This document shows, one piece after another, positions 17,146-54,497 of a stretch of 64,000 bases of DNA. Each line of letters starts with the position of its first letter. Within the stretch, counting starts at the first letter, position 1. Below the pieces are notes generated by a model. That model made no database searches. It saw nothing but the letters and a program-made list of their open reading frames with translations, and had not been told where the DNA came from. The translations under genes were made by a program, and so were the position numbers. Location: the NCBI RefSeq assembly GCF_002364615.1, contig NZ_DEYP01000026.1:54488-118487 (forward strand). Reading direction: 5' to 3'. This DNA comes from Arsukibacterium sp. UBA3155 (GTDB taxonomy: Bacteria > Pseudomonadota > Gammaproteobacteria > Enterobacterales > Alteromonadaceae).

Positions 17146-17619
17146 ATGATTAAAACCGGCGACAAATTACCAGAAGTCAGTTTTTCACAACTGACCAAAG
17201 AAGGCGTAATGAACCCGACCACCAGCCAGATATTCGCGAATAAAAAGGTACTGATGTTTGCCGTACCAGGAGCGTTTACGCCTACCTGCTCTGCTGCCCA
17301 TTTGCCTGGTTATATTGCCCTGGCCGATCAAATTAAAGCCAAAGGCGTGGATACCATTATTTGTACCGCGGTAAACGATGCCTTTGTGATGAGTGCCTGG
17401 GGTAAAAGCCAGAATGCTGAGGAAATTGTGTTTTTAGCCGATGGCGGCGCGGCGTTTCATACTGCTGTTGGCCTGACCATGGAAACCGGCGATTTCGGTG
17501 GTGTGCGCTCGCAGCGCTACGCCATGCTGGTGGAAAATGGTGTGGTAACCCAACTGAACGTAGAAGCGCCGAAAACCTTTGAAGTCAGCAAAGCTGAAGT
17601 GATGTTAGCGGGGCTTTGA
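17146..17619 (+). CDS. Peroxiredoxin (Prx5/AHP1 type)
   Basis: VPGAFTPTCS peroxidatic motif, VNDAFVM, RSQRYAM. Confidence 0.95.
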   Translation: MIKTGDKLPEVSFSQLTKEGVMNPTTSQIFANKKVLMFAVPGAFTPTCSAAHLPGYIALADQIKAKGVDTIICTAVNDAFVMSAWGKSQNAEEIVFLADGGAAFHTAVGLTMETGDFGGVRSQRYAMLVENGVVTQLNVEAPKTFEVSKAEVMLAGL

Positions 17620-17717: not shown

Positions 17718-18209
17718 CTAATTATAAACACTGTAGCAATATCCTCCATGTTCATGAGCTTTTTTAGGGCCAACATAAACAAATTCACCACTTTGAGTTT
17801 CAGAGTCAAATTGAGGATAATAATTTTGTTTTCTACTGTAAGAATAATGTCCTGTGCCATATTGTAAATTTGCCCACGAGCAATCACGCGACATGGTGGG
17901 GTACGCTCGACCTCTGGAGACACAAAACCCGCCATGTCGGCGTGCATCCCAAGGACCAACATAGATCATATCCATCGCGGCACAAGATTGCTTATCCAAC
18001 GTATAAATAGCATCTAAGATAGGCATTAAAAACTGCGTGGGATTAATACATGATCCGCCATGCTCATGCGCTTTGTTCGGCCCCAGGTATAAACTTTCGG
18101 GTGGGCAGTTCCTTGATAAGGTATCCATTGAACTGGTTATACCCTGTGCATCTATATTAATGGAAGCAAAAAATACACATGTTAGGATTATCCTGTAAAT
18201 ATATTTCAC
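17718..18209 (-). CDS. Secreted hypothetical protein with three C...YxGPxxAxxHGGxC repeats
   Basis: Signal peptide, GTG start, AT-rich DNA; three internal repeats visible in the translation. Confidence 0.75.
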   Translation of the reverse strand: MKYIYRIILTCVFFASINIDAQGITSSMDTLSRNCPPESLYLGPNKAHEHGGSCINPTQFLMPILDAIYTLDKQSCAAMDMIYVGPWDARRHGGFCVSRGRAYPTMSRDCSWANLQYGTGHYSYSRKQNYYPQFDSETQSGEFVYVGPKKAHEHGGYCYSVYN

Positions 18210-18472
18210 CTAAATTCGCCTTATTTAAATTTTGATCTGGTTTTGTATATTACATGTAAATTCTGTGATTGGAAATTGATTTTATTGGTTTATTTAAAAG
18301 TTTTTTCTTAGAATTTTTAGATGCTTAACAGTATCACATAGTGACTGTCTTATTAAATATTGAGACTCGCTTAGGGTTTCTGCCCCAAGTACGAAATGAG
18401 TTCGGTGATCTAACGCGGACGTCGATACGCATCTTATTGCATGCTTACTCAGATAAAAGCGACATCTTACTT

Positions 18473-18631
18473 ACAGCTGTTGGCCTGAGCATGGAAACCG
18501 GCGATTTTGGCGGTGTGCGCTCGCAGCGGTACGCCATGCTGGTTGAAAATGGTGTGGTAACCCAACTGAACGTAGAAGCGCCGAAAACCTTTGAAGTCAG
18601 TAAAGCCGAAGTGATGCTGGAAGGATTGTAA
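18473..18631 (+). pseudogene. Second, 5'-less copy of the last 53 codons of the peroxiredoxin gene
   Basis: Aligns without gaps to 17461-17619; 16 mismatches in 159 bp by my count, only 2 amino acid changes (T>S, A>E). The sequence upstream in ORF 18341 is unrelated to Prx. Confidence 0.93.
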
Positions 18632-18698: not shown

Positions 18699-19829
18699 TT
18701 AACAATGTTTACCATGGTGACCGGAGATAACGTTTTGGTATATATCTTCCAGTTTTTGACATTGCCGCCGGATATTAAAGTTTTGATTTACGTGGGTAAT
18801 ACCTGCTTGCGACAGCTGGGTGCGCAGCGCTGTTGATTGCAATACTGTCAATAAATTCTCTGCCAGTTGCGCGACATTTTTTTGCTCAGACAGTAATCCG
18901 GTTTTTTCCTGAACTACCCCTTCACCAACGCCGCCGGTATCGAATGCGACCACCGGTGTGCCAACAGCCTGAGATTCTACACATACCGTGGGCATGCCTT
19001 CTTCGTTTCCTCTGTCCATCACAATACTGGGCAGACAGGTTACCCATGCTTTTGACATCAGCTCTTTTACCTGCACTCTGTTTTGCGCGCCAGCAAAAGT
19101 AACATTGGTGACTTCATTCGCGAGTAGTTGCAGCTTGTCCTGATAGGAGCCATATCCTGCGATAATCAATTGGGCGTCGGGTAGCCGCTGATTAATAGTT
19201 TTCATCGCTTGTAACAAATACTGACAACCTTTTTGCTCTATTAGTCTGCCAACAAATAATATTGTTGGTTGTTCAAATCTCTGTGCTGCCGGAGCAAAAA
19301 ACTGGTTATCAATGCCAATATAATGCTGAATAATTTTATCTTCCGGACAGCCTCGGCTAAGTAATTTTCTTTTTATAAATTGTGATACTGCTATTATTTT
19401 TGCGGATTGTGCGAAGGTAATATGACGATGTTTACTGTTGAACGAAAATTTGTCTTTTTGAGTAACATCTGAGCCATGAAAAGTGGTAACCAGAGGCAGC
19501 TCGAGCTTTTTTGCAATGGGCGCGCAATAATAGCCGCCTTTACCAAAATGCGCGTGAATCACATCGGCGTGATTGGCAGCCAATGCCTTTTGCCATCTGG
19601 GTGTCAGTATCTGACAACTATCAAGTAACAGTCTGGATAGCACGGCCATGGGTTCTACATCCGCTTGCACGCAAGTCGCTTTACCCTCAATTAAATTAAT
19701 CCCCCCGCTATCGTTTCGAAGACCAATGTAAGTTGGTGAGAAACTGGGCAGGTTGTTGCCCTGTGCTGCAACAAAGGTGTTTGACCTTGGCAGCACGCGT
19801 TTGGTAAAAATAAGTACTTTTGATGGCAT
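18699..19829 (-). CDS. Glycosyltransferase family 4 (GT-B)
   Basis: DVIHAHF, TTFHGSD, ILFVGRL and EEGMPTVCVES (EX7E-like) motifs. Confidence 0.88.
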   Translation of the reverse strand: MPSKVLIFTKRVLPRSNTFVAAQGNNLPSFSPTYIGLRNDSGGINLIEGKATCVQADVEPMAVLSRLLLDSCQILTPRWQKALAANHADVIHAHFGKGGYYCAPIAKKLELPLVTTFHGSDVTQKDKFSFNSKHRHITFAQSAKIIAVSQFIKRKLLSRGCPEDKIIQHYIGIDNQFFAPAAQRFEQPTILFVGRLIEQKGCQYLLQAMKTINQRLPDAQLIIAGYGSYQDKLQLLANEVTNVTFAGAQNRVQVKELMSKAWVTCLPSIVMDRGNEEGMPTVCVESQAVGTPVVAFDTGGVGEGVVQEKTGLLSEQKNVAQLAENLLTVLQSTALRTQLSQAGITHVNQNFNIRRQCQKLEDIYQNVISGHHGKHC

Positions 19830-19838
19830 ATTACGTAA

Positions 19839-20765
19839 TTACTTATTAATAAGTGCCGATTTAATCCGGCGAATGGTTTTACGAATAACGGACACCTTAC
19901 TATCTTCCTTGTAACGGCCTTTTTCAGCATGGCGGATAAGCAGTAAGTTTGGCAGCGCTATCGGCACACCCTGGGTACCCAATAACCAGCGTACTGCCCG
20001 ATCTTCATAGGTTTTGGTCCAGTGGTACTTTGGTTTCTGGTATACCGCTAAATCGTCACAATAACCGCAGTTGCGCGCCACTTCGCCGTGAATAATCTGA
20101 ATAGCGCCGGTGGCCCGGTCAAATTTACGCGGTTTGAACTTGGTTTTATCCACTTCCAGCAATTCGGTTTTGTCTTTGCCGGCAGAGATCATCGGGTCGG
20201 CTTCCGTCAGCAGTGGGGTGACCAGCAGGGTATCGGGAAATAACAGAATTTCCTGCCGACCTTTAAGTAGCTGCTCCAGGGTGTCCAGACAGTTTTCATG
20301 AAATACCATATCGCAATCGGCAAACCACACCCAGTCAGCTTTAGTCTCTTTTGCCGCGCGGTTGCGGCCAATGGCCCGTCGCAGCAACAAGGGTGTTGCT
20401 AAAGGCTGAAAATTCCACTCGATATTAGGTACTGACAGCGTTTGAAAATGCTCCAGTAGTTTTGCAGTTGCCTGGTCTTCTTCAGAATAGAACACGGTAA
20501 AGCGCACCTGCATTGTCGTTGGTGGATACTTCACCAAGGAGCTTAACTGATAGACAAAAAAGCGGGCGTAGTTCCAGCAATGGGTAACAATTTCCAGCTT
20601 TATATTGTCGTGCACAACTGGCAAATCGGTTTTAACGGGTTGGTTTTTAATAAAGGCTGTGGCCGGAAAGTAGCCAGAGGCGGCGAAGCGCAATAACAGT
20701 TCTTTGACGTTATCCAGTGCGCTGGCTTTTGCTGGCAGGTTATTTTCTGGTTTGGCTGCGGTCAT
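19839..20765 (-). CDS. GT-A fold (family 2-like) glycosyltransferase
   Basis: GRNRAA followed by the WVWFADCD DXD motif; in the LPS cluster next to waaA. Confidence 0.75.
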   Translation of the reverse strand: MTAAKPENNLPAKASALDNVKELLLRFAASGYFPATAFIKNQPVKTDLPVVHDNIKLEIVTHCWNYARFFVYQLSSLVKYPPTTMQVRFTVFYSEEDQATAKLLEHFQTLSVPNIEWNFQPLATPLLLRRAIGRNRAAKETKADWVWFADCDMVFHENCLDTLEQLLKGRQEILLFPDTLLVTPLLTEADPMISAGKDKTELLEVDKTKFKPRKFDRATGAIQIIHGEVARNCGYCDDLAVYQKPKYHWTKTYEDRAVRWLLGTQGVPIALPNLLLIRHAEKGRYKEDSKVSVIRKTIRRIKSALINK

Positions 20766-20932
20766 GCATAACTCCGGCGTTACGGTTAGCGGGTTAAACC
20801 GGCTATAAAGGCAAAAAGTTTAGCATTAAAGGTTGGGTCAAAACAGATTCTTTTGGTGTAGCAGGCTTATATTTGGCATCATAGCGGCTTTAGCCTGTAG
20901 GGGCGACATTTGCGTTTACACAGGAAGTTATT

Positions 20933-22960
20933 ATGGCCAAGGCGTTAAGCCGCTGTGCTTACCAGCTGTTATTGTATCTGGGTTTGCTGCCATTGCTGGG
21001 CTATCTGCTCTGGCGTTCAGTGCGCGATGTGCGCTATCGCCAGCGACTGGCCGAGCGCTTTGGCTGGCTTTCTGCCCAAATTCAGGCCGGCGGTATTGTG
21101 GTGCATGCGGTATCGGTTGGCGAGGTTATCGCTGCGCTACCGTTAATTAAGCAGTTGCAACAGCAATATCCGAACCAGCAGCTTACGGTTACTTGCACCA
21201 CCCCTACCGCTAGCGCAATTATCAAAAGCCGGCTGGGTGATTCTGTTCAACACTGTTATTTACCCTTCGATTACCCCGGCGCCATAGCCCGGTTTATTAA
21301 ACACTTGCAGCCGCAGCTTGTTGTTATTCTGGAAACGGAGCTTTGGCCCAATTTACTTAGGCAATGCTACAAAGCGCTGATCCCTACCGTACTGGTTAAT
21401 GCCCGTTTATCAGCGCGTTCCGCCAGGGGCTATCGGCGCTTTGCCTGGCTTACCCTCCCTGCATTGCAGCAGATAAGCTTATTACTGGCACAGGATAGCG
21501 CCAGTGCCGGTCGGTTCCGGGCATTAGGCCATAGTAACGTACAGGTAACGGGCAATTTAAAATTTGAGATGCGCTTGCCGGATAACCTGGCAGCCACCAG
21601 TAGCCAGCTATCACCCGCATTAACCGACCGGCTGGTTTGGGTAGCGGGCAGCACCCACGAAGGCGAAGATGAGCAGCTAATAGCCTTATACCCTCAGCTT
21701 AAAAAACAATTTAGTAATTTATTGCTGGTACTGGTACCGCGCCACCCGGAGCGTTTTAATAAGGTGGCCACTCTGGCTACTCAGGCCGGGCTGCAGTTAT
21801 GGCGGCGAAGCGCCGGCGGTGCGCCAACGGCTTACACTGATGTGGCACTGATTGACAGCATGGGTGAGTTACTAGCCTGGTACCAGCAAGCCAGCCTGGT
21901 ATTTATTGGCGGCAGTTTAATTAAACGGGGCGGCCACAACCCGTTAGAGGCAATATGTTTTGCTAAAGCGGTACAAACCGGGCCGCATTATTTTAATTTT
22001 GCCGATGCTTATAACCAGCTGGCTCAACGACACGCCGTTAGCATCATCCAAAATGCTGAACAGTTAGCTGCCAATGCCGCTGCGCTGCTGGCTGATACCG
22101 TTATGCGCCAGCAGCAAGGCGAGCGGGCTTACCAGTTTTTCCAGTCACAGCAAGGCGCAGTAAAGCGCAGCAGTATGGCCATCGCCGACCTGTGTGGGGA
22201 TAGCCTTAGCAACGTGCAGCGCCAGACTGCCGGCAACGAATTATATTGGTTTCGCACCGATCTGTTCGACAACATAAGCGCTGCGCAGTTTGACCCTACC
22301 TGGTGGCAGCAACAGCAGGCGGTAACCGGCAGCTCGACCGGCCGCAACACGGCGTGGTTTATCAGACATACTCACCAGGAGCGCCAGCATCAGCTGGTAT
22401 TGCGCCATTATTATCGCGGTGGCCTGGCAGGCAAAATTAACAAAGACCGGTTCTTCTACCAAAGTGCCTTGTATAGTCGTGCTATGCAGGAATTCAGCTT
22501 GCTGCAATGGATGCGTCAGCAAGGGTTAGCCGTACCAAAACCGGTTGCGGCCCGCTATCTGCGTACCGGCGTAAGCTACCAGGCAGACTTACTGATAGAG
22601 CGGATAAGTGACGCCCGCGATCTGGCGACTATATTACATCGTGACCGTGCCCTTACTGATAGTGAATGGCAGGCGGTTGGCACCACCATCGCCCGTCTGC
22701 ATCAAGCGGGGGTAGACCATACCGATCTCAACTGCCGTAATATTTTGCTTGATAACGACGGTAAGGTATGGCTAATTGATTTTGATAAATGCCGGCGTCG
22801 GCAGCCGGGCAATTGGCAGCAACAAAATCTGCAACGGTTATTGCGATCCTTGCATAAAGAGCGCGCAAACCTGACGCCTTTTCACTGGCAGGAGCTTGCC
22901 TGGAAAAATGTTATTAATGCTTACCAGCAACAGAAAAAGCCGTTAAACCCGCATAAATAG
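20933..22960 (+). CDS. waaA: Fusion of Kdo transferase (WaaA/KdtA) and Kdo kinase (KdkA)
   Basis: N-terminal ~420 aa: HAVSVGE, ETELWPN, GSTHEGE, VPRHPERF, GGHNPLE. C-terminal ~245 aa: LRHYYRGG, HTDLNCRNIL, LIDFDK, NLQRLLRSL. One uninterrupted 675-aa ORF. Confidence 0.92.
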   Translation: MAKALSRCAYQLLLYLGLLPLLGYLLWRSVRDVRYRQRLAERFGWLSAQIQAGGIVVHAVSVGEVIAALPLIKQLQQQYPNQQLTVTCTTPTASAIIKSRLGDSVQHCYLPFDYPGAIARFIKHLQPQLVVILETELWPNLLRQCYKALIPTVLVNARLSARSARGYRRFAWLTLPALQQISLLLAQDSASAGRFRALGHSNVQVTGNLKFEMRLPDNLAATSSQLSPALTDRLVWVAGSTHEGEDEQLIALYPQLKKQFSNLLLVLVPRHPERFNKVATLATQAGLQLWRRSAGGAPTAYTDVALIDSMGELLAWYQQASLVFIGGSLIKRGGHNPLEAICFAKAVQTGPHYFNFADAYNQLAQRHAVSIIQNAEQLAANAAALLADTVMRQQQGERAYQFFQSQQGAVKRSSMAIADLCGDSLSNVQRQTAGNELYWFRTDLFDNISAAQFDPTWWQQQQAVTGSSTGRNTAWFIRHTHQERQHQLVLRHYYRGGLAGKINKDRFFYQSALYSRAMQEFSLLQWMRQQGLAVPKPVAARYLRTGVSYQADLLIERISDARDLATILHRDRALTDSEWQAVGTTIARLHQAGVDHTDLNCRNILLDNDGKVWLIDFDKCRRRQPGNWQQQNLQRLLRSLHKERANLTPFHWQELAWKNVINAYQQQKKPLNPHK

Positions 22961-23075
22961 CGCTTTGTCGCAGTTTTTGCCTGTGGTTTTACCATTATTT
23001 AACGCTTATATAATGGATTAAGCTGTTGGTGTCTTAGTTGAACTTTGGTATAACTATGGCAGCGGAGGGGCATCT

Positions 23076-25313
23076 ATGCGGCTAAATATAATAACAACAG
23101 CATTGCTCGCAGTCAGTTTGGTGGCAGCAGCAGATAATTCCGAAATAATGACGGAAGCGAAAACAGCGTTTGATGATGGTAGGTATGCCAGAGCAGTCGA
23201 GCTTTGGCAAAATCTGGCTATGGAAGGGGTAACGGCAGCGCAATTTGAGTTAGCCAAAGCCTACTCATTGGGGCAGGGTGTACAGCAAGACCCGCTGCAG
23301 GCCTCGTACTGGCTGGAACAGGCTGCGTCTAACAGCACTGACTTTGCTGAAATAACTGCTGCAAAGCGTGATATTGAGCGCGGTGCTCAGCGGTTGAGGG
23401 CTGAGCAATCAGCGGCAGAAACACAAACGGCTGTTATATCTGAGCAGACGCAATCAGCAGTATCTTCCCCTGCACCCCAGCGGGTAGTCGTCAGCAATGC
23501 CGCTGAACTCCCGCTTGGTACCAGTAATCCGGCCGCAGCGCTGGCAGGCGCTCAAGTGAATACTCAGCAACAAAGCAACGACAATGTTGTGGCTGAGCGC
23601 AGCGCGGATAAAACCACTACTAATACGCCGGTGGCCACCACCAATGTCAGCTCGGTCGATGTTGGTTCAGCCAATTTTGACACCGGCATGCGCGCCTTTA
23701 ATCGCGAAAATTACAGTGAAGCCCTGGCGCAGTGGTTGCCACTGGCGCAGGCTGGCAACCTTGATGCTCAATTTAACCTCGCCGCACTCTATGCCAACGG
23801 CCTGGGTGTTGCGGTAGATTATACCGAAGCGGCTAACTGGTTTGTTGCTGCCGCCGAGCAAGGCATGGCTGTCGCGCAATATCACCTGGCGACCTTGTTT
23901 GCCAATGGTCGCGGTGTGGGTAAAGACGATGTGCAGGCAGTGTACTGGTATCGCCAGGCTGCGCAGCAGGACTATTTGCTGGCCCAGTATAATCTGGGGT
24001 ACATGTATGCCAATGGCCGTGGTGTTAAGCAGGACGAAAGTGCTGCGCTAAACTGGTTTGAAAAGGCAGCGGCTCAGGGCGATGTTGATGCCCAGTTTAT
24101 TGTGGCTAACCGCTACAGTGATGGTCGTGGAACCACGGTTGATATGAGTCAGGCGGCGCGGTGGCTGCAGCTGGCGTCGGCGCAAAATCATACCCGCGCT
24201 GCTTATCAGCTTGGGTTATTGTATCGCGATGGCAATGGCGTCAGTAAGAACGATGATACGGCCTTCAAATTATTTTCAAAAGCGGCGGAACAAGGTTTAG
24301 CGGCAGCCCAGCGCGAAGTAGGTGCCAGTTACCTGCAGGGGCGTGGGGTGCGTGCTAACACCGGTCGTGCCAAAGAATGGCTGGAGCTGGCAGCAGCCCA
24401 GCAAGACGGTGATGCCAGTTATTACCTTGGCTTGTTGCTGCAACAAAGCGGTGGCCGCCAGGATGATTTACGCCGGGCAGTTGAATTATTTGAACTGGCA
24501 GCAAGCCAGGGCTCCGCCAATGCGCAGTACCAGTTAGGCTTAAGCTACGCCAACGGAACCGGGGTAGCGGTAGATGAACAGCAAGCCTTTAAATGGTTTG
24601 AGGCGGCTGCGCAGCAAGGGTTAGCCGTAGCCCAATATACTGCAGCGCTGCGCCTTGCCAATGGTACCGGCACAGCGCAGGATGATGCTGCAGCGGTGAG
24701 TTGGTATGAGCAGGCGGCTGCACAGGGCGAAGTGTTCGCTATGTATAATCTGGGTTTTATGTACGCGAGTGGCCGCGGTGTGGCTCAAAATGAGCAGCAG
24801 GCAGTATACTGGTATCAGAAAGTTGCAGAAAGTGGCGATGCCGATGCGCAGTTTAATATGGGGCTAAGGTTTGAAACCGGCCGGGGTGTTAAACAAAATG
24901 ATCAGCAAGCTGTTTACTGGTATCAGCAGGCCGCTGACAAGCAGCATGGCCGGGCGTTAGCCCATTTGGGCTGGCTGTATGAAAAAGGCTACGGTGTGCC
25001 GCAAGATGAGGCACGGGCGCTGGCGCTGTATCAAAGCTCGCTGGATGCTAAAGTACCTCGGGCGCTAACGGCACTTGGTATGTTTTATAAAAATGGCCGG
25101 CTGGTAAAAGCAGACGATAAAAAAGCAGTAGAGTTGTTCAGCCAGGCTGCGGAACAAGGTTATGCTACGGCCCAATATAATCTGGGCTGGATGTATGAAA
25201 ATGGCCGTGGTGTTGGCCGGGATTTAATTAAAGCCCGCGATTTTTACCAGTTGGCAGCCGCACAGAATGAACCTTTGGCAAAAGCACAACTGCATCGCTT
25301 GTTAAACCCCTAA
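23076..25313 (+). CDS. Exported Sel1-like repeat protein
   Basis: Signal peptide; about 15 repeats of the AQYxLGxxYxxGxGVxQDxxxAxxWYxxAAxQG type (1 + 14) separated by a low-complexity linker. Confidence 0.92.
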   Translation: MRLNIITTALLAVSLVAAADNSEIMTEAKTAFDDGRYARAVELWQNLAMEGVTAAQFELAKAYSLGQGVQQDPLQASYWLEQAASNSTDFAEITAAKRDIERGAQRLRAEQSAAETQTAVISEQTQSAVSSPAPQRVVVSNAAELPLGTSNPAAALAGAQVNTQQQSNDNVVAERSADKTTTNTPVATTNVSSVDVGSANFDTGMRAFNRENYSEALAQWLPLAQAGNLDAQFNLAALYANGLGVAVDYTEAANWFVAAAEQGMAVAQYHLATLFANGRGVGKDDVQAVYWYRQAAQQDYLLAQYNLGYMYANGRGVKQDESAALNWFEKAAAQGDVDAQFIVANRYSDGRGTTVDMSQAARWLQLASAQNHTRAAYQLGLLYRDGNGVSKNDDTAFKLFSKAAEQGLAAAQREVGASYLQGRGVRANTGRAKEWLELAAAQQDGDASYYLGLLLQQSGGRQDDLRRAVELFELAASQGSANAQYQLGLSYANGTGVAVDEQQAFKWFEAAAQQGLAVAQYTAALRLANGTGTAQDDAAAVSWYEQAAAQGEVFAMYNLGFMYASGRGVAQNEQQAVYWYQKVAESGDADAQFNMGLRFETGRGVKQNDQQAVYWYQQAADKQHGRALAHLGWLYEKGYGVPQDEARALALYQSSLDAKVPRALTALGMFYKNGRLVKADDKKAVELFSQAAEQGYATAQYNLGWMYENGRGVGRDLIKARDFYQLAAAQNEPLAKAQLHRLLNP

Positions 25314-52700: not shown

Positions 52701-54497
52701 TTAGCCGCTAGCGGCCAGATAGTCACCTATTTCAGCAATAAATTCACTGCCATAGCGGCTAAGTTTAGTATTGCCCACGCCAGACACGGCCAGCATGCTG
52801 CTATTGTCGGTGGGTAAGCGCTGACACATGTCGATTAAGGTTGCGTCACTGAATACCACAAACGGCGGTACGTCATCCCGCTCTGCCAATTGTTTACGCA
52901 AGGTCCGAAGCCGGGCAAATAACGCCCTGTCGTACTTTTGGTTGCCAAGCTTGGCGGGCACTTTCTGGCTGCTTTGCAAGCGCGGTACCGCCAGTTGCAG
53001 GTTGGTTTCACCCCGTAATAGTGGCCGGGCTGCAGGTAATAACTGCAACACCGAGTTACGGGTAATATCCTGTTGCAAATATCCAAAGTGCACCAGCTGG
53101 CGCAATACGCTTAACCAGTAGTCATGGCTATGATCTTTGCCCAGGCCCCAGGTACTTAGCTTATCATGCGCCTGCTCGCGGATTTTCTGGTTCTGGCTGC
53201 CGCGCAGCACCTCAATGACATGGGCCATACCATAACTTTGCTCTACCCGGTATACACATGACAACGCTTTGCGCGCCAGCTCAGTGGCATCAAACTGCTG
53301 CGGCGGGTTTAAACAAATATCACAGTTACCGCAGCGTTGTTGCCGGGCTTCGCCAAAGTAATTGAGTAATACCAGGCGGCGGCAGGTTTGTGCTTCAGCA
53401 AAAGCGGCCATCGCCTGAAACCGTTGCCAGGCTACCTCAGCCCGTGCCGGATTTTCTTCAGCTTCCAGCCAGCGTTTCATCCGGGTAATATCTGCCGGGT
53501 CAAACAGCATCAGCGCTTCTGCCGGCACGCCATCACGACCGGCGCGGCCGGTTTCCTGATAATAGGCTTCAATGGTGCGCGGCAATTCAAAATGAATAAC
53601 AAAGCGGATATTAGATTTGTTTACGCCCATGCCAAAGGCCACGGTGGCGACGATGATTTGAATGTCATCGCGCTTAAAATCATCCTGCACCTGGCCACGT
53701 TGCTCGCTGTCATGGCCGGCATGGTAGGCCGCCACTTTAAAGCCACGCTCAGCCAGCTGACCACTCAGCTCATCGACTTTGCGCCGTGAGCTGCAGTAAA
53801 TAATGCCGGCACTGCTGTCCTGCTGCTTTAAGTAGCTGACCACTTGCTCCAGTGGCCGGAATTTTTCCTGTACCGTATAGCGGATATTGGGCCTATCGAA
53901 GCTGCCGGTGTAAATGCAGGGGTTTTGCAAGGTTAACTGCTGCACAATGTCCTGGCGGGTCGCAATATCGGCGGTAGCCGTCAGCGCCATTACCGGAACG
54001 GCAGGGAAGCGCTGCTTTAATAACGCCAGTGCCATATAGTCGGGCCGAAAATCATGGCCCCACTGCGAAATACAATGGGCTTCGTCAATGGCAAATAAAC
54101 TGACGCCAACATCAGTTAACCGATCTAAAAATGCCGGTTGCAATAACCGCTCGGGAGCGACATACAATAGTTTTAATTCGCCACGGCGCAGCCTTGCAAA
54201 CACCTCGAGTACCGCTTCCCGGCTTAAACTGCTGTTAACGAATTCAGCGGCAATACCATTGGCCTGCAGGGCGTCAACCTGATCTTTCATCAGCGACATT
54301 AACGGCGAGACCACAATCGTTACCTGGGGCAAATGCAAGGCGGGCAGCTGATAGCACAGCGATTTTCCGCCACCGGTTGGCAGCAGCACAAAGCTGTCGC
54401 GACCTTGTAATGCCGCATCAATAATTTCAGCCTGGCCATCGCGAAAGGCGCTGTAGCCAAAGGCTTGTTTTAAAGTGGCTAATAAGTGTTCTGACAC
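52701..54497 (-). CDS. recQ: ATP-dependent DNA helicase RecQ
   Basis: [21 protein letters not shown], Zn-binding Cys cluster, RQC and HRDC domains. Confidence 0.97.

Follow-up and report, generated by a model that had tools for sequence, protein, structure and literature searches.

The open reading frame (ORF) at positions 20933–22960 of a 64,000-nucleotide stretch of contig NZ_DEYP01000026.1 from Arsukibacterium sp. UBA3155 (contig positions 54,488–118,487; the whole stretch is called the window below) joins in a single chain WaaA, the transferase of Kdo (3-deoxy-D-manno-oct-2-ulosonate) to lipid IVA, and the Kdo kinase KdkA. Its product is very probably a naturally bifunctional enzyme for the inner core of lipopolysaccharide (LPS), in which WaaA would add one Kdo residue and KdkA would phosphorylate it, and which would have arisen by fusion of adjacent genes. 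The fused gene is an architectural variant of a well-known two-enzyme step. Its architecture, completeness, conservation, distribution and rigid model were computed, and the presence of 4-phosphorylated Kdo (Kdo4P) in two species is taken from the literature; from these we infer activity and mono-functionality in the window organism as well as the selective reason for the fusion.

Architecture, conservation and predicted structure

The ORF listing and the translation give one uninterrupted frame of 675 amino acids (aa) with no internal stop. It matches the Pfam domains Glycos_transf_N (PF04413, aa 37–212, E 5.6e-66) and Kdo/WaaP-family kinase (PF06293, aa 456–655, E 1.6e-55). The NCBIfam equivalog model of the lipid IV(A) Kdo transferase, NF004388, covers aa 6–418 (model positions 3–418 of 425, 496 bits, cut-off 438), and that of the Kdo kinase, NF002475, covers aa 428–668 (model positions 3–239 of 241, 301 bits, cut-off 142). 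As both matches are full-length and above cut-off, both enzymes are complete, and only about nine residues (aa 419–427, nucleotides 22187–22213) lie between the two envelopes. The preliminary description of this DNA, which had proposed a complete WaaA followed in frame by a complete KdkA, is borne out by these matches.

Kdo transfer is needed in nearly all Gram-negative bacteria. The host genome (3.89 Mb, 99.8% complete) contains no second waaA or kdkA, the fused ORF being its sole match above cut-off to PF04413 and to PF06293, so that both essential steps must come from the fused protein. The nearest homologues of this protein are named Arsukibacterium and share 74–91% identity with it.

To evaluate conservation, 50 fused proteins were aligned, the most distant of them at 34% identity. 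Residues S61, G63, E64, E134, E136, N156, R158, K210, P269, R270, H271, G333, G334, H335 and E339 are invariant in the WaaA half, as are R495, H596, D598, L599, N600, F617 and D618 in the KdkA half, where N603 and D616 are conserved in at least 90% of the proteins. The SxGE, ExE, PRH and GGHNxLE motifs of WaaA align to the same motifs in the solved structures 2xci (Aquifex aeolicus WaaA) and 4bfc (a CMP-Kdo-binding domain structure), the G333–E339 motif aligning to GGHNLLE and GGHNILE, respectively; we take their catalytic roles to be those known from the A. aeolicus WaaA structure. In a sequence search of the PDB copy, the HxDLxxxN loop and the DFD motif of the kinase align weakly to Rio2 kinase, and no KdkA structure was found by this search. 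By its position, D616-F617-D618 is presumably the metal-binding DFG-type motif of protein kinases. Both halves look active, judging from the equivalog scores and the invariant catalytic motifs.

The AlphaFold2 prediction, made on the 50-protein alignment, has a mean predicted local distance difference test score (pLDDT) of 94 (92.7–94 for the five models) and a predicted template modelling score (pTM) of 0.90. Residues 411–440 show pLDDT block means of 93–97, without a low-confidence linker, and residues 2–31 form a long N-terminal helix. The top match of the model in Foldseek is 2xci (E 4.6e-24, template modelling score normalized to the target, TM(target), 0.73), and 4bfc is matched with a TM(target) of 0.90 and a root-mean-square deviation of 1.4; both structure matches place the WaaA part in the GT-B fold. 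The pTM of 0.90 over 675 residues points to a fixed mutual orientation of the two enzymes, as predicted by the model. Across the junction, a median of 60 residues lies between conserved anchors in the 50 proteins, mostly 55–68 and a few with insertions; the sequence of the linker is variable despite the tightly kept anchor spacing. The chain would be made and kept as one polypeptide in the cell.

The membrane-embedded, mono-functional GT30 enzyme of A. aeolicus (2xci/2xcu) has the same GT-B fold and matches aa 51–387 (E 3.9e-27, 23% identity), but contains no kinase domain. By comparison with its membrane embedding in 2xci, the N-terminal helix of the fused protein may serve as a membrane anchor.

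That the fusion is an artefact of sequencing or assembly, with a stop codon or frameshift missed at about 22170–22230, has a negligible probability. The frame in the window is read from an assembled contig, and rare split versions are found in other assemblies (G001 and L086). However, a single match extends across both domains in 24 of 24 genomes of the same GTDB genus; the exception, G001, whose assembly is 83% complete and consists of about 470 contigs, has its break at aa 301/302, within WaaA and away from the junction. Both domains are in one open frame in 52 of the 80 named loci checked for reading frame; these 52 come from unrelated projects, include finished-quality contigs and belong to Rheinheimera, Alkalimonas, Idiomarina/Pseudidiomarina, Hydrogenophaga and Thiomicrospira microaerophila. 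The length of the junction is conserved. The recurrence of the same frame in independent assemblies excludes a junction artefact, and this explanation was dropped; the stop or frameshift considered in the preliminary description is absent from the window ORF. It is also very improbable that either domain has lost its catalysis and is retained only for a scaffold role. Nothing specific speaks for it beyond its being a generic possibility for fused enzymes, whereas both domains score above the equivalog cut-offs with invariant catalytic motifs, the genome has no other copy of either gene, and Bordetella pertussis cannot do without kdtA or without kdkA (PMC10743493).

Distribution and origin of the fused gene

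A domain-architecture search, as had been proposed for this protein, shows that the WaaA–KdkA fusion recurs widely. The best 120 full-length matches (655–707 aa) among 5.8 billion clustered proteins contain both Pfam domains in all cases (120/120). With the kinase part as the query, proteins of 371–1182 aa form 316 clusters at 90% identity, and the best 120 of these 316 are almost all WaaA–KdkA fusions. Among 1.84 billion representative proteins clustered at 50% identity, there are 28 full-length fused representatives, with identity down to 34%, and several fragments in this set also span the junction.

For the family survey, 150 high-quality genomes were sampled evenly over 57 genera, and in six of these genera (g1, g61, g66, g43, g45 and g69) all sampled genomes carry the fused gene. 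The named carriers include Arsukibacterium, Alishewanella, Alkalimonas, Rheinheimera, Idiomarina and Pseudidiomarina, together with Hydrogenophaga (among others H. flava, H. palleronii, H. bisanensis and H. laconesensis), further metagenome-assembled genomes (MAGs) of Burkholderiales, and Thiomicrospira microaerophila ASL8-2. The genome of the latter also contains six neighbouring same-strand open frames of 509–617 aa (G190:C29:10645-19835), each a weak match to the Kdo/WaaP-family kinases.

The 664-aa fused protein of Idiomarina baltica OS145 (EAQ31281.1) is public, and the architecture is therefore already in the databases. The names of fused entries give one activity, ‘lipid IV(A) Kdo transferase’ in some and ‘Kdo kinase’ in others, and in no case the two together, and no paper mentioning a WaaA–KdkA fusion was found in the searchable full-text literature. 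The architecture has thus long been in the databases under single-function names and is undescribed as far as the searchable literature shows. The earlier reservation that the fusion might be the documented norm for its lineage is correct in one part: the fusion is the norm for this lineage and for several others, but no searchable paper documents it. There is no difference of substance between the window protein and the public fused orthologues (I. baltica OS145 EAQ31281.1 and those of Arsukibacterium, Rheinheimera, Alishewanella, Alkalimonas and Hydrogenophaga), which have the same architecture and motifs at 34–91% identity, and it is one more member of their group.

WaaA is found in other single-chain forms as well, namely a PAP2 phosphatase–WaaA protein (P0175, 626 aa), a WaaA–isochorismatase protein (P0220, 608 aa) and a tandem WaaA–WaaA protein (P0159, 866 aa), one cluster member of the last being named as a Rhodospirillaceae MAG. 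WaaA is fused in these chains too, but the partner never supplies the Kdo kinase step.

In most unfused members of the family, waaA and kdkA share a strand, and a spacing of about 1.2 kb is frequent. In three genera kdkA abuts waaA on its downstream side, with gaps of 68–170 bp (G103, G050, G127, G087, G158, G122, G186 and G081). A single in-frame stop lies exactly at the WaaA/KdkA junction in G086 (C19:23219-25198) and in Idiomarina sp. A28L (L065, 4261-4263), a state that is either just unfused or just not yet fused, and the genes overlap in different frames in Aliidiomarina soli (L080) and in one Idiomarina MAG (L071). The abutting genes and the in-frame-stop variants of relatives are plausible precursor states of the fusion. 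Steroidobacteraceae and allies have the reverse order, kdkA followed by waaA, in unfused form. At loci L069, L070, L078, L079, L081–L084 and L090–L092, from MAGs of Steroidobacteraceae, Nevskiaceae and other Gammaproteobacteria, kdkA is directly upstream of waaA and abuts it or overlaps it in another frame.

On a first tree of 87 rows, no fewer than five changes of the fused state are required, compared with an expectation of about 22 when the labels are shuffled. A tree of the WaaA domain with 67 rows places 25 of 26 fused rows in one clade (SH-aLRT 99), which a few unfused rows share, among them members of the family from an abutting-gene genus. The remaining fused protein, P0149, groups in this tree with unfused WaaAs of abutting-gene loci (SH-aLRT 100) and probably became fused independently. 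That all fusions go back to a single origin is unsupported, given the changes needed on the larger tree and the place of P0149 among unfused WaaAs. The history is best described by a major fusion of old date, one or more additional independent fusions and a number of fissions. P0141, an unfused protein of 440 aa that is 64% identical to the query and adjoins it in the tree, comes from a 6.6-kb metagenome contig and may be a real fission or a truncated call.

For comparison with Hydrogenophaga flava, 40 relatives were drawn, their kinship being unstated. The fused gene is present in 12 of them (52–69% identity to P0150), and another 12 have two adjacent waaA genes, which are 33–38% identical to P0150, with no kinase match. 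The other 16 genomes are more distant; a lone waaA without any kinase match is present in 14 of them, and two have no match at all. The KdkA equivalog model detects KdkA of H. flava only inside the fused frame and finds none in four tandem-waaA genomes. The tandem paralogues at L094–L097 (G193:C1:3287282-3289758, G206:C3:165032-167511, G195:C1:15619-18119 and G212:C75:7124-9603) are co-directional and highly divergent. The presence of either the fused gene or tandem waaA suggests two alternative inner-core systems in one genus.

The native WaaAs of Burkholderiales form a clade of their own (SH-aLRT 99), apart from the Hydrogenophaga-type fused WaaAs, which lie inside a clade otherwise made of fused forms and Alteromonadaceae WaaAs (SH-aLRT 99). 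This hints, as a lead, that the fused gene was acquired as a unit by Hydrogenophaga and replaced a tandem-waaA system there. The approximately unbiased test did not reject the vertical alternative (log-likelihood difference 20.2, p 0.155), with the group named after the tree had been seen and with long branches of the tandem paralogues. B. pertussis has a stand-alone kdkA, so that the kinase is present elsewhere in Burkholderiales (PMC10743493). A wider proposal, that WaaA–KdkA is a rigid, self-sufficient and horizontally portable Kdo-phosphate module which hands on Kdo-lipid IVA and which, as one gene for two mutually dependent steps, moved from an Alteromonadaceae-type lineage into Hydrogenophaga and Thiomicrospira, replacing a tandem-waaA system that was probably of the Kdo2 type, is speculative and rather unlikely. 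If it is true, inner-core chemistry differs between species of one genus.

Inner-core chemistry and the proposed reason for the fusion

WaaA and KdkA work at the cytoplasmic face of the inner membrane, and the fused protein is probably located there, with the N-terminal helix as its anchor. The GT30 WaaA part would transfer one Kdo from CMP-Kdo to lipid IVA, and the C-terminal KdkA part would phosphorylate this Kdo at O-4 in an ATP-dependent reaction to yield Kdo(4-P)-lipid IVA. The product would be the substrate for late acylation and for extension of the core at O-5 of Kdo, an extension that, in a host in which no GT9 heptosyltransferase was found, probably begins with a hexose. The fusion itself most likely goes back to waaA and kdkA genes that lay directly next to each other in one direction and lost the stop codon and short spacer between them.

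The lipooligosaccharide (LOS) of Rheinheimera pacifica KMM 1406T is αGal-(1→2)-αGal-(1→6)-αGlc-(1→5)-αKdo4P-(2→6)-lipid A (PMC13608308), and that of Idiomarina zobellii KMM 231T contains a single αKdo4P with αGlc on O-5, plus neuraminic acid, in the order Neu-Glc-(1→5)-αKdo4P-lipid A (PMC9695755). Heptose is absent from both cores, and genes are mentioned in neither of the two papers (PMC13608308, PMC9695755). Both species carry the fusion: R. pacifica proteins P0128 and P0137 are among the fused matches, and both domains are in one 667-aa open frame in I. zobellii KMM 231 (L048). In the 99.8%-complete host genome no GT9 heptosyltransferase (PF01075) was found, which fits the heptose-less Glc-(1→5)-Kdo4P cores of these two species. 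The predicted mono-Kdo-phosphate core thus holds for the gene family, as it is present in both published LOS structures; for the window organism, it is expected by homology. Transfer of one Kdo by a mono-functional WaaA and phosphorylation at O-4 would likewise apply to the window protein by analogy, from the single Kdo and the Kdo4P in the LOS of these orthologue carriers.

The separate mono-functional WaaA (KdtA) and KdkA of Haemophilus influenzae, Vibrio cholerae and B. pertussis belong to the same families and catalyze the same consecutive reactions, and their products are of the Kdo4P-lipid A class, which is also that of the fusion carriers R. pacifica and I. zobellii. These systems consist of two polypeptides, often encoded by unlinked genes (BP0095 and BP2349 in B. 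pertussis; PMC10743493), whereas the window protein is one chain of 675 aa with a linker of about nine residues and a predicted rigid arrangement.

The fusion may be kept in these bacteria by the dependence of the transferase on the kinase, since a mono-functional WaaA would be useless, and possibly harmful, without KdkA, and the fused chain would guarantee 1:1 expression, co-localisation at the membrane and co-inheritance. According to a passage of PMC10743493 that cites Brabetz 2000, a mono-functional WaaA complements E. coli only with kdkA co-expressed. Similarly, a passage of PMC3178793 that cites Hankins and Trent 2009 states that in V. cholerae, H. influenzae and B. pertussis the late acyltransferase LpxL needs prior phosphorylation of Kdo. 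A direct hand-over of Kdo-lipid IVA from the transferase to the kinase, channelling in the sense of the preliminary description, is a possible addition and a conjecture. The rigid AlphaFold model is compatible with channelling, and enforced 1:1 co-expression and co-inheritance explain the fusion equally well.

Several observations weigh against a bifunctional enzyme that is mono-functional in Kdo transfer and maintained for its fusion. The window protein is only about 53% identical to the R. pacifica-type and about 40% to the Idiomarina-type proteins, the mono-functionality of WaaA cannot be read from sequence, and the published chemistry is that of other organisms, so it applies here by analogy. 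The other sampled genera of the family have separate waaA and kdkA genes, and apparent fissions occur within the fused clades (L065, L071, L080 and the unfused tree rows); the fusion would thus be dispensable, and at best advantageous.

Two other readings were weighed. It is improbable that the WaaA part is bifunctional or mixed and that the kinase acts on a part of the pool, which would give both Kdo-P and Kdo2 glycoforms. Besides the difficulty of telling mono- from bifunctional WaaA by sequence, such a reading has a precedent in Pasteurella multocida, which makes both with a bifunctional KdtA and KdkA, as cited in a passage of bioRxiv 10.64898/2026.06.09.731171. The reports on R. pacifica and I. 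zobellii give Kdo4P glycoforms only, however, a kinase tethered 1:1 should out-compete a second Kdo for the same O-4, and GT9 heptosyltransferases, the readers of both glycoforms in P. multocida, were not found in the host genome. A more serious contender, although still doubtful, is a fusion that is functional yet near-neutral, in which a stop was lost between overlapping or abutting operon genes and no kinetic hand-over takes place. Many relatives have abutting co-directional genes, some with one in-frame stop between them, the nesting of unfused forms among the fused ones and the existence of one or more additional independent fusions (P0149) show that the state flips fairly easily, and the linker sequence is not conserved. 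On the other hand, six genera keep the gene fused in all their sampled genomes, the fused state persists in proteins with as little as 34% identity, the junction length is tightly constrained, and the confident rigid body of the model suggests an evolved interface. The bifunctional inner-core enzyme formed from adjacent genes is the preferred explanation.

Gene neighbourhood and significance

The features of the fused gene and its surroundings are collected in the table.

Table. Coordinates of the fused waaA–kdkA gene, its parts and the adjoining features in the window
Feature	Position	Strand	Basis or remark
Whole fused waaA–kdkA ORF	20933..22960	+	675 codons, TAA stop at 22958-22960
N-terminal hydrophobic helix (aa 2–31), putative membrane anchor of the WaaA part	20936..21025	+	AlphaFold helix 2–31, hydrophobic sequence
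WaaA (GT30 lipid IVA Kdo transferase) domain, aa 1–418	20933..22186	+	NF004388, PDB 2xci/4bfc sequence matches, Foldseek
S61-V-G63-E64 motif of WaaA	21113..21124	+	S61, G63, E64 invariant; aligns to A. aeolicus SIGE
G333-G334-H335-N-P-L-E339 motif, C-terminal WaaA half	21929..21949	+	G333, G334, H335, E339 invariant
Junction or short linker, aa 419–427	22187..22213	+	gap between NCBIfam envelopes; sequence variable, length near-constant
KdkA (Kdo kinase) domain, aa 428–668	22214..22936	+	NF002475, 301 bits; PF06293, E 1.6e-55
Kinase catalytic loop H596-T-D598-L599-N600-C-R-N603	22718..22741	+	aligns to HGDLSQYN of Rio2 kinase 1tqi
D616-F617-D618 motif	22778..22786	+	aligns to IDF of Rio2
Divergent intergenic region, 167 bp, presumed promoters	20766..20932		ORF coordinates
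Two divergent genes, candidate outer-core enzymes	18699..20765	-	context only
308-aa protein, weak GT2 match	19839-20765	-	profile match
GT4 glycosyltransferase	18699-19829	-	profile match

A consensus scan of 20600–23200 found no promoters or terminators above the shuffled expectation. The gene downstream of the fused gene encodes a 745-aa Sel1-repeat protein, which adjoins it only in the closest relatives, and the 308-aa protein adjoins it only in the closest relatives L002–L008 and in one MAG. No match to the GT4 protein was found within the fetched flanks of the relatives' fused genes. A conserved operon context was rejected, as no relatives but the closest have the window neighbours next to the fused gene. 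The 308-aa protein is 91–98% identical in most of the nearest relatives' loci and 52% in L008, the corresponding range for the adjacent fused gene being lower, at 75–91%.

Further upstream, a complete Redoxin-family gene is located at 17146–17619 (+). About 0.7 kb past it, a 96-aa ORF at 18341–18631 (+) matches the Redoxin profile over just the final ~55 profile positions and is a duplicated tail of the Redoxin gene; the two copies flank a 163-aa ORF at 17718–18209 (-).

The enzymes and reactions described here are textbook knowledge and the biology is not new; the value of the finding is practical and evolutionary. Hundreds of entries are named for one activity only, and genome-based predictions of the inner core (Kdo-P versus Kdo2) that rely on these names miss the kinase or the transferase. 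The single gene is expected to turn lipid IVA into Kdo(P)-lipid IVA and would be convenient for engineering LPS in laboratory E. coli, since the same conversion takes two genes with the H. influenzae system. The predicted rigid WaaA–KdkA chain is an attractive structural target for the passage of a membrane-bound intermediate between inner-core enzymes, and the way in which fused gene and tandem waaA alternate among relatives of Hydrogenophaga offers a natural experiment on inner-core swapping.

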